Of a stretch of 64,000 nt of DNA, positions 41,632 to 43,789 are shown piece after piece. A program made the translations under genes and the position numbers. The DNA lies in IMG/VR virus record IMGVR_UViG_3300037483_000648, positions 708 to 64,707 of that record; one strand, given 5' to 3'. The notes under the pieces are model-generated. The model was not told the origin of the DNA and did not search any database. It worked only from the letters and a program-made list of their open reading frames with translations. Numbering within the stretch: position 1 is the first letter of the stretch; each line of letters opens with the position of its first letter. The DNA comes from a virus. Lineage: Duplodnaviria > Caudoviricetes.

Positions 41632-42579
41632 TTAAATAAACTTTTTAAAGTACTGAATAGTCATCAACAACCCTTCTTCAAGTTGTATTCTTGGCAGCCA
41701 CCCTAATATGTCACTGGCCAAAGAAATATCTGGGCATCTTTGTGTAGGGTCGTCTGAAGGAAGGTTGAGGAAATTAATCTCAGAACTGGATCCTGTTAAC
41801 TCAACAACTTTTAATGCTAACTCTTCAATAGTAAATTCTATAGGATTCCCAAGATTAATCGGCCCAGTAAATGATTTGTCAGTATTCTCCATCAGTCTTA
41901 CAAAACCCTCAATTAAGTCATCAACGTAGCAAAAAGATCTGCTCTGTAAACCGTCACCATAAATAGTAATAGGTTTATCCTGAAGAGCCTGAATAATAAA
42001 ATTAGAAACAACACGGCCATCGTTAGGACTCATTCGAGGGCCATATGTATTGAATATTCTGGCCACCTTAATTTCCATATTGTGTTGCCTTTTATAATCA
42101 AAGAAGAGAGACTCAGCACATCTTTTCCCCTCATCATAGCAAGACCTGATTCCGATAGGGTTAACATTTCCCCAATAGTATTCGACCTGAGGATGAATAT
42201 CAGGGTCACCATAAACCTCACTAGTGGATGCCTGAAATATTTTGGCCTTAGTTCTTTTGGCAAGACCAAGCATATTAATAGCCCCGAGCACTGCTGTTTT
42301 AGTGGTCTGGACGGGGTCAAATTGGTAGTGAATAGGGGAAGCCGGACAGGCAAGGTTATATATCTCGTCGACTTCTACATATAAAGGAAAGGTGATGTCG
42401 TGCCTGAGTACCTCAAAATAAGGATTAGGGAGCAGGTGAGCAATATTTGCTTTGCCTCCGGTGAAGAAATTGTCGCAGCATAAAACTTCGTTTCCATCAT
42501 TTAAAAGCCTCTTGCAGAGATGAGAGCCGAGAAAACCTGCCCCGCCAGTTACTAAAATTCGTTTTCCGTATGATTTCAT
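41632..42579 (-). CDS. UDP-glucuronate decarboxylase (UDP-xylose synthase-like SDR)
   Basis: [46 protein letters not shown]. Confidence 0.9.
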
Positions 42580-42589
42580 TCTTAATTCC

Positions 42590-43789
42590 TTATTTTGATT
42601 TAACCAAGGTCATGCCATATTCATTTTTAGTTTTAGTAGGCACTACGCCTTCTTTCAAAATCAATCTGTTCCTTTTAAATTTTGAGTAATCGACGTTATG
42701 ATGCCAGTGACCAAACTTCCAGGTTACAGTAACCTCTTCAGGATGCTGTTTTTGAAGAGATTTGGCAAAAGAAAGCCGGTGGTCACCAGTATTATACACG
42801 TTATCTGTATTTCCACCCTTCATCGCACCTTTCTTGTCGCCAGCACCTTTATATGTCTGTAATTTATTCATTAATAAGGCTCTAAATAATACAGTACAAT
42901 ATCCATCTTTTAATAACCGTAGGCTGAGGTCAGTATCCTCATTGTAACGACCCCTCCATCTATGAGGAAGATTTGTATCAAGAAGAATGCAAGAATATAT
43001 TCGGCTGTTCAAGAGGAATGGAGTTGATTTAGGCATCCTGTCTGGCATAAAGGCTTGATCATGTGGACCAGCCATAGCAATATTTTCATATCTGTCAACA
43101 AAATCTTCCATGGCCCTAAAGAATCCGCCACCACGAACTTGAAGTCTTCGATTATTATTACACCTAACAAAATTACCAATATTATCATCTACAGTCCAGT
43201 GTCTTTTAAATTCTCTTTCTTTGGCCCACTCCCAAATATAATTTCTTGCAGGAACAGACCCTTTACCAAGATCGTGAAAAGGCATAACTACGACGTTTTC
43301 TTCCCCAAGGTGATCTATATACTCATCACCTTCCGTTTCCTCTACAAAGAACCTATACGAGATTCCAAGGGCATCTAATACCTTCCCTGTAGTTTGAACA
43401 TCAGCCCTGCCTTTACTCGGAATACAAATAGGGTATCGGCTATCTGTTGGTTCACCGATATACTCAAATTGAGCACTTTTTAACCTTTCCTGAGGAGGCC
43501 ACCAAGTAGAATCAGATTTATGAGTAACCCTAATTCCAAGTTTCTTTGCAAAGTCCTGAACATCTTCCTTGGTCATAAAATTCATGGTTATCTGATATTT
43601 CGGGGTAGCGTCTTTCATCTCAAATTCCGGCATACCCCACCAAATATTTTTCCAATCCGGTTCTACATCAAATAAGTTTACACACTTGATTTCTCTGGTG
43701 GGTCTGTTCTTGTTTAAGTCTTCCATCTGATATTTATCCAAGAAGGTATTGTTTATAGAAAAATAGGGATGCCAGAAAAGATCCAACAT
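42590..43789 (-). CDS. GREB1/TAGT-like glycosyltransferase with N-terminal accessory domain
   Basis: [47 protein letters not shown]-terminal WWGMPEF domain. Confidence 0.8.

Follow-up and report, generated by a model that had tools for sequence, protein, structure and literature searches.

The phage genome represented by IMG/VR record IMGVR_UViG_3300037483_000648 (Duplodnaviria; Caudoviricetes) carries, side by side on the minus strand of its replication block, a gene for a UDP-glucuronate decarboxylase (UDP-xylose synthase, UXS) and a gene for a glycosyltransferase (GT) of the TAGT family. Sequence comparison gives good support for the two as a functional donor-transferase unit that would deliver a pentose, because the cassette has been assembled repeatedly and in unrelated phage lineages. 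The explanation that we propose is that this cassette works together with the replication genes and xylosylates the phage's own DNA, and to this reading as a whole we assign a probability of about 0.45. The record is 64,707 bp long, has direct terminal repeats and is rated 100% complete by CheckV. The stretch analysed here, called the window below, covers bases 708–64707 of the record (64,000 nucleotides) and is essentially the entire phage genome.

The assignment of the UXS gene product (P0001, 315 residues) as a UDP-glucuronate decarboxylase, and hence as the predicted maker of UDP-xylose, is secure on homology grounds. In a phmmer comparison, human UXS1 (PDB entries 4gll and 2b69) is matched over residues 5–313 with an E-value of 8e-120 and 403 bits, while the other classes of short-chain dehydrogenase (SDR) reach 133 bits at most, with ArnA at ca 79 bits and the apiose/xylose synthase UAXS at ca 78. 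The protein is 77–79% identical to bacterial UDP-glucuronate decarboxylases, including those of Electrothrix, Beggiatoa and Sulfuricaulis, and it gives Pfam matches to Epimerase and GDP_Man_Dehyd. The alignment of phage and bacterial UXS sequences has GGAGFLG (G12–G18), S118-T119-S120-E121, Y148, K152, N177 and R281 as invariant positions. The NAD-binding glycines at G12–G18 as well as T119, E121, Y148, K152, N177 and R281 align to hUXS1, and the latter six residues are what we take, from the literature on that enzyme, to be the catalytic set. In an NCBIfam scan every match fell below the cut-off, and since that library contains no UXS equivalog, the call rests on the PDB and database homologues. 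It should also be pointed out that the homologous cellular enzymes (human UXS1 and bacterial UXS), from which the presumed catalytic residues are kept, belong to polysaccharide and proteoglycan pathways, whereas P0001 is encoded in a phage replication operon and appears to be coupled to a DNA-type GT. The two open reading frames (ORFs) are separated by 10 nt, and an AGGA sequence is found 8 nt upstream of the UXS ATG.

The GT (P0002, with an ORF of 399 residues) is the only TAGT copy in a genome-wide scan. It matches the Pfam family TAGT (PF20691) with an E-value of 1.4e-37 and 130.1 bits, compared to a cut-off of 27.5, over residues 119–316 and profile positions 1–203 of 205, and it matches phrog_842 as well. 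The structure predicted by AlphaFold2 (AF2) has a GT-A fold (pLDDT 86.9, pTM 0.87). Its top matches in BFVD are TAGT-domain proteins, with E-values of 4e-23 and below, and the nearest solved structures are generic GT2-like GT-A chains with Z-scores up to 12.9. These fold searches yield only generic GT-A neighbours and give no clue to the acceptor; a sequence search of the PDB returned nothing at E ≤ 1.

Across 46 homologues of P0002, residues R128, D201-D202-N203, E284-D285, K309 and H349 show no variation, and as the catalytic motifs are thus preserved, the enzyme is likely to be active. The motifs match the R...DDD...EDY/F active-site pattern of the phage GT-A DNA glycosyltransferases and the base-J GT (bioRxiv 10.1101/2023.12.21.572611), with different third residues, namely N for D and T for Y/F. 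The subfamily is large, comprising 6,637 proteins at E ≤ 1e-5 (90% clusters) and 985 representatives at E ≤ 1e-10 (50% clusters). An earlier note on this DNA had described a TAGT-like GT next to a UDP-xylose synthase, co-oriented with it, inside the replication block and directly upstream of the sliding clamp and dUTPase genes. Coordinates and matches agree with that description, and the scores given above, together with the GT-A model, bear out both enzyme identities.

Ahead of the catalytic core, the GT has an accessory module with a W..WWGMPEF motif. Across about 90 loci, this N-terminal module is fused to the core in most cases, occupies a small ORF of its own beside the GT in several, and was undetected in about 20. 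In the AF2 model it packs against the core with pLDDT values of 84–96, and from the model and the comparative loci it looks like an integral subunit of the GT. The module is acidic, with an isoelectric point (pI) of 5.4, and is therefore not suggestive of a DNA-binding domain. A search of the protein Atlas for other enzymes containing it gave only stand-alone viral proteins of 83–88 residues, with scores of 0.82–0.83 that lie below the reliable range.

The start of the GT gene deserves a comment. The closest homologues are 375–390 residues long and cover 93–95% of the query, beginning at about residue 22. A terminator-like hairpin with a U-run, which spans 43763–43795 or, with slightly wider bounds, 43757–43795 at the upstream end of the gene, has a folding energy of −23.5 kcal/mol (z −6.3), and none of 200 shuffled sequences was equally stable. 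Because this hairpin overlaps the first ATG, and because the homologues begin ca 21 residues later, the GT probably begins at M22 (43726), which would give a protein of 378 residues. The hairpin further suggests that the GT, UXS and clamp genes either form a unit of their own or are expressed by read-through.

The pair of genes is kept in related contigs down to a GT identity of 66%, and the gene order is swapped in two of the loci (L007 and L009). In two others, from close relatives of the window phage, a homing endonuclease gene is located exactly between the GT and the UXS (HNH-like at 7197–7745 in L004, GIY-YIG at 9164–9727 in L013), and the pair is nevertheless kept; the window phage has no such gene at the junction. 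A survey of the neighbours of the GT was made over 85 loci of the subfamily. An SDR gene is the second commonest neighbour after the large terminase, being present at 13 of these loci and within 1.5 kb at 11 of them. Seven of the 13 are true UXS genes, with identities of 54–96%, and UDP-glucose dehydrogenase (UGDH) is found at 7 of the 85 loci. At one locus (L060) the GT, the N-module, a 78-residue ORF, UXS and UGDH are contiguous, and at another (L043) GT, UXS and UGDH extend over ca 7 kb. Several T4-like contigs have the GT with another SDR and UGDH, one of these SDR proteins being closest to UDP-glucuronate 4-epimerases. As other lineages thus pair the GT with UGDH and a UDP-glucuronate-4-epimerase-like SDR, donor tailoring would seem to be a habit of the GT family.

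The same picture is obtained when the survey is centred on UXS. The GT subfamily adjoins UXS at 10 of 79 viral UXS loci; seven of the ten are new, and their GTs have their best matches in seven different GT lineages. The UXS-linked GTs are scattered over at least three to four places in the GT tree, and the phage UXS sequences are not monophyletic but interleaved with bacterial ones, in a tree that comes from a short search and has long-branch caveats. The adjacency of GT and UXS is far beyond chance, and seen from either gene the pairing recurs in separate GT lineages. A literature search found no description of a phage UXS–TAGT pair.

In the mechanism that we propose, the UXS would turn host UDP-glucuronate into UDP-xylose, as indicated by its very strong homology to known decarboxylases; UGDH was not found in the complete phage genome. 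The GT, consisting of the GT-A core and the obligatory N-module, would then take UDP-xylose as its donor, a step suggested by the recurrent cassettes. Finally, the genomic context points to the phage's own DNA as the target, which would receive the sugar while it is replicated or shortly afterwards, before it is packaged, with the purpose of shielding it against restriction or CRISPR nucleases.

At roughly even odds, DNA is favoured as the acceptor over protein, its main rival, on the indirect evidence of polymerase fusions, the adjacency to the clamp, replisome and terminase genes, and the basic cores of the GTs. Among 19 long homologues that were scanned, six are fusions of the GT with a family A DNA polymerase (P0147, P0161, P0168, P0181, P0200 and P0218), and one GT–PolA fusion was confirmed as a single ORF (L096:8001-11066, on a 108-kb contig). 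In the latter contig, genes for an HhH-GPD DNA glycosylase and a ribonucleotide reductase are located a few genes upstream of the fusion. The large terminase is a neighbour of the GT at 18 of the 85 loci, at 13 of them within 1.5 kb, and the sliding clamp at 11, directly after the GT in L010, L022 and L070; the clamp loader, PolB and DnaB are also recurrent. The catalytic cores have a median pI of 9.2, with 91% above 8. Tandem paralogues of the N-module and GT were found as well, with three copies in L015 (7992–11968) and further cases in L017, L025, L080 and L081. They are reminiscent of multi-step DNA glycan builders and suggest either that a glycan is built up step by step or that several specificities exist.

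A number of results weigh against DNA xylosylation. Profile searches of the complete genome gave zero matches to PF00303 (thymidylate synthase, TS), PF13640 (2OG-FeII_Oxy_3), PF00145 (C5-methyltransferase), PF01555 (N6/N4-methyltransferase) and PF02195 (ParB), and zero also to Tet_JBP (PF12851), a model for which there was no positive control. All ORFs of at least 200 residues in the window were scanned without a TS, 2-oxoglutarate (2OG) oxygenase or methyltransferase match, and no ORF big enough for such an enzyme was left unscanned. The remark in the earlier note that TET/JBP, methyltransferase and TS homologues are missing thus holds over the complete genome for TS and the methyltransferases, while for TET/JBP it stands as the absence of a match in a search without positive control. 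A TS homologue is likewise missing from all 50 IMG/VR records whose GT is 40–98% identical to P0002 (12 of which are at least 90% complete) and from five further records with GT and UXS, including a complete 43-kb phage with direct terminal repeats. This makes 0 of 55 related viral records, 13 of them at least 90% complete. Tet_JBP gave no significant match in the same 50 records, again with a model that had no positive control. The TS model works on phage records, as it is positive for Aeh1, Kuja and henriette, which carry GT homologues and have one TS-family gene each, and negative for the Vibrio phages 1.076.O and 1.124.O. Nor was a convergent donor-pocket residue found in the UXS-linked GTs, as no alignment column is common to the four lineages concerned and rare elsewhere. 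To our knowledge, there is no GT-A enzyme that acts on an unmodified DNA base.

As none of the enzymes known to produce hydroxymethyl- or hydroxy-pyrimidines was found in the complete genome, the acceptor would not be such a base formed along a known route, which means that either an unrecognised DNA acceptor chemistry is at work or the DNA step of our proposal is wrong. Xylosylation of DNA on something other than a hydroxy(methyl)-pyrimidine, for example a canonical base or a DNA terminus, would constitute a new hypermodification chemistry, and we regard it as possible but doubtful. Belonging to the same tentative proposal is the view of the TAGT members concerned as an orphan clade that is associated with the replisome, sometimes fused to a polymerase, and able to swap donors by means of neighbouring UDP-sugar enzymes. 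Xylosylation of the backbone, which had been mentioned in the earlier note, is pure speculation.

The nearest cultured homologues of P0002, at ca 40% identity, are found in the Aeromonas phages Aeh1 (L093, NC_005260, 63453–64652), 65 and phiAS5. RefSeq names these proteins beta-glucosyl-HMC-alpha-glucosyltransferase, a label that, for Aeh1 and 65, was probably transferred and is misleading. Because Aeh1 and 65 are without gene 42 (dCMP hydroxymethylase) and gene 56 (PMC2993671), the Aeromonas homologues are orphans too. The cultured phages with orphan homologues are then Aeh1, 65 and phiAS5 together with the Vibrio phages 1.076.O and 1.124.O.

T-even phages have DNA that contains glucosylated 5-hydroxymethylcytosine (hmC), and every case of sugar-modified phage DNA that we know of starts from a hydroxylated pyrimidine, which either a TS homologue or a dioxygenase provides. 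The reported sugars include gentiobiosyl-hmC, formed by the TAGT enzyme in T2 and T6 (PMC13390438), hexose, N-acetylhexosamine (HexNAc) or heptose on TET-made hmC (bioRxiv 10.1101/2023.12.21.572611), and mono- to tri-arabinosyl-5-hydroxycytosine in RB69, DLP3 and their relatives (PMC13326640). In the Shewanella phage Thanatos, a pentose, putatively xylose, was reported on cytosine (PMC12838424), and the TS homologue of this phage was later shown to yield 5-hydroxy-dCMP (PMC13326640). Given the Thanatos pentose and the arabinosyl-5-hydroxycytosine phages, pentosyl DNA is itself not new, and the earlier note, which knew of no xylosyl DNA, is no longer up to date on this point; all of these modifications, however, depend on a TS homologue, which the window phage lacks.

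The base-J GT, the T6 beta-alpha-GT and the 5mYOX-linked DNA GTs belong to the same family as P0002 (PMC13390438; bioRxiv 10.1101/2023.12.21.572611). With the TET/5mYOX-associated phage GT-A enzymes and the trypanosome base-J GT it has in common the Pfam family, the GT-A fold and the R...DD(D/N)...ED motifs, and the phage members are, as here, encoded among DNA-metabolism genes. There are also clear differences. No C5-methyltransferase or ParB was detected here, and no 5mYOX/TET in the Tet_JBP search that had no positive control; the motifs are DDN and EDT instead of DDD and EDY/F, and there is the additional N-terminal module. Moreover, the present GT has a dedicated UXS, whereas the characterised members rely on the host pool for a hexose, HexNAc or heptose. 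The T-even TAGT enzyme (T2/T6) has PF20691 and phrog_842 in common with P0002 and adds its sugar to phage DNA post-replicatively, but it depends on hmC (gene 42) and on an initial alpha-glucose, neither of which was found here. As T-even phages were not among the tblastn matches of P0002 at E 1e-5, the two enzymes are related at the profile level only. The T-even set for hmC glucosylation (gene 42, dCTPase, alpha-/beta-GT) has no counterpart in the window phage, which has no TS-family gene and in which dUTPase is the sole nucleotide-pool enzyme detected.

Another close parallel is given by Straboviridae of the RB69, DLP3 and Thanatos type, with a pentose on DNA, a phage-made activated pentose encoded beside the transferase, and a role against restriction (PMC13326640, PMC12838424). 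In these systems, however, a TS homologue (D169N) makes 5-hydroxy-dCMP, the transferases are GT-B enzymes, and the donor, UDP-arabinofuranose, is obtained by an arabinose-5-phosphate isomerase, a kinase and a uridylyltransferase, while here there is no TS, a single GT-A, and a UXS acting on UDP-glucuronate. ORF scans of the window gave no matches to an arabinose-5-phosphate isomerase, a kinase/uridylyltransferase or a GT-B of that type. Judged from its genes, the cassette would thus depart from the known pentose systems on three counts, namely that no acceptor-making enzyme was detected, that the transferase is a GT-A, and that the donor route is by UXS from UDP-glucuronate. GREB1 has the same GT domain family but is eukaryotic, large and multidomain, uses UDP-GlcNAc as donor and has no link to replication genes.

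Some of the points against a DNA acceptor also favour a protein target. In this alternative, close to the glycosylation of virion or host surface that the earlier note had offered, the GT would xylosylate Ser/Thr residues of a phage or host protein, which could be a component of the virion, the replisome or the packaging machinery, or a host factor, with the UXS giving the donor. GREB1 is a protein O-GlcNAc transferase that modifies ER-alpha (PMC7968844), and the GT homologue of Vibrio phage 1.076.O lies between the portal and head-morphogenesis genes, to which can be added the frequent adjacency to the large terminase. Pyle et al. found that ca 65% of about 25,000 GT contigs have no 5mYOX or ThyS neighbour, and considered such partnerless contigs 'less likely' to act on DNA (bioRxiv 10.1101/2023.12.21.572611). 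The fact that no DNA acceptor pathway was detected in the genome also fits. On the other hand, the repeated fusion to a replicative polymerase is hard to square with a virion-protein glycosylase, the gene is located in early replication operons and not in late ones, and no conserved candidate substrate protein co-occurs with the GT. We therefore consider a protein target to be unlikely, if a serious competitor. Canonical chemistry has a considerably lower probability. Here, the acceptor would be 5-hydroxymethyluracil, hmC or 5-hydroxycytosine, provided by an enzyme of the host or by one of the phage that has diverged too far to be matched. Such an acceptor would conform to the characterised DNA-acting members of the family, all of which target a hydroxyl group that is carried by a modified pyrimidine or by its sugar, and the single TS-family genes of the GT carriers Aeh1, Kuja and henriette, as well as the uncontrolled Tet_JBP search, leave some room for it. 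It is difficult to reconcile with the outcome of the ORF scan, with the 0 of 55 records for a TS model that does detect phage targets, and with the lack of gene 42 in Aeh1 and 65.

Another option is that the GT acts on a small molecule, be it a free dNMP or dNTP or an immune signal derived from a nucleotide, rather than on polymer DNA. Two long homologues (P0250 and P0262) have the GT fused to a SLOG-type nucleotide-binding domain (YAcAr), the polymerase fusions would be compatible with a pre-replicative supply as well, and AvpGT, a GT-A enzyme that glycosylates nucleosides, is a structural neighbour at Z 11.6. However, these SLOG fusions number two only, the structural matches are generic GT-A ones, and no kinase or pyrophosphatase module is found alongside the GT, which makes this scenario quite improbable. 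An equally small chance is given to the two genes being unlinked in function, such that the UXS is an auxiliary metabolic gene, for example one that depletes host UDP-glucuronate or alters the glycans of the host surface, while the GT draws on a common UDP-sugar of the host. It is true that 72 of the 85 GT loci have no nearby sugar-nucleotide gene and that 69 of the 79 viral UXS loci are without the GT subfamily, and the missing donor-pocket signature would be expected in this case. Yet the adjacency has been re-created independently in many GT lineages with UXS genes that are not monophyletic, it survives the order swap and the insertion of homing endonucleases, and UGDH joins the same cassettes.

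The coordinates of the cassette and of its neighbours are collected in Table 1. The plus-strand arms of the genome contain the structural and packaging genes, including those for the tail tube, the large terminase TerL, a Mu-type portal, MuF and the small terminase TerS. The minus-strand block encodes replication and recombination functions: an SNF2-type helicase, a primase, a DnaC-like loader and DnaB, then the GT and UXS, followed by the sliding clamp and dUTPase, a PAPS-reductase-like protein and a split DnaE, and also a clamp loader, a weak SSB-like match, RecA, endonuclease VII and SbcD. The acidic protein upstream of the GT has zero Pfam or PHROG matches and is kept in close relatives only. 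The PAPS-reductase-like PP-loop family includes DNA-modification proteins such as DndC. The window's member of this family was considered as a hidden partner of the GT and rejected, as it does not recur beside the GT in other lineages.

Table 1. Location of the UXS–GT cassette, its parts and its neighbours (positions in the window).
Feature	Position	Strand	Basis and remarks
dUTPase	40131-40469	-	PF00692, E 7.5e-24; downstream of the clamp
Sliding clamp (DnaN-like)	40601-41620	-	phrog_947, E 9.6e-37, and weak Pfam DNA_pol3_beta; directly downstream of UXS
UDP-glucuronate decarboxylase (UXS), 315 aa, P0001	41632-42579	-	homology to human UXS1 and bacterial UXS
TAGT-family GT-A glycosyltransferase, ORF 399 aa, P0002	42590-43789	-	PF20691
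GT-A catalytic core, residues 119-399 of P0002	42590-43435	-	PF20691 and AF2 fold; core pI 9.2
N-terminal accessory module of GT, residues ~40-117, W..WWGMPEF motif	43439-43672	-	comparative loci and AF2
Probable true GT start codon, M22 of the ORF	43726-43728	-	homologue lengths and hairpin
Terminator-like hairpin and U-run	43757-43795	-	between acidic-protein gene and GT; overlaps first GT ATG (43789)
Acidic protein, 238 aa, pI 4.7	43834-44550	-	upstream neighbour of GT
PAPS-reductase-like PP-loop protein	38970-39791	-	PF01507, E 1e-18; phrog_424; within the replication block

Some further features of the genome were noted. The DnaE-type polymerase is encoded in two minus-strand ORFs (37504–38973 and 35037–36689, within the stretch 35037–38973), which are separated by a free-standing GIY-YIG/NUMOD3 homing endonuclease gene (36664–37503). 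The N-terminal half of DnaE has weak intein/Hint matches at its end, and we therefore read this arrangement as a fractured gene with a split intein. Two HNH homing-endonuclease-like genes are located at 51846–52418 and 25141–25656 (minus strand), one of them with an AP2 domain; with the GIY-YIG gene added, the genome seems heavily loaded with mobile endonucleases. In the structural arm, the product of 6611–7678 (plus strand) contains a metal-binding motif of the MopE type (PF11617, E 2e-10), matches polysaccharide lyases weakly, and may be a depolymerase-type tail protein.

Hypermodifications of phage DNA shape the outcome of restriction, CRISPR and type IV defence, and they are a source of tools for epigenomics. 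The orphan clade to which the present GT belongs counts over 6,600 members when clustered at 90% and lacks the hydroxylated-pyrimidine start, yet it is found among replication enzymes, or fused to them, and recruits UDP-sugar enzymes. If its acceptor is indeed DNA, the clade would represent a new class of DNA hypermodification that is widespread in environmental phages, with xylosyl-DNA as one flavour of it. If not, a family that is labelled 'DNA glycosyltransferase' in thousands of phage genomes would mostly do something else.

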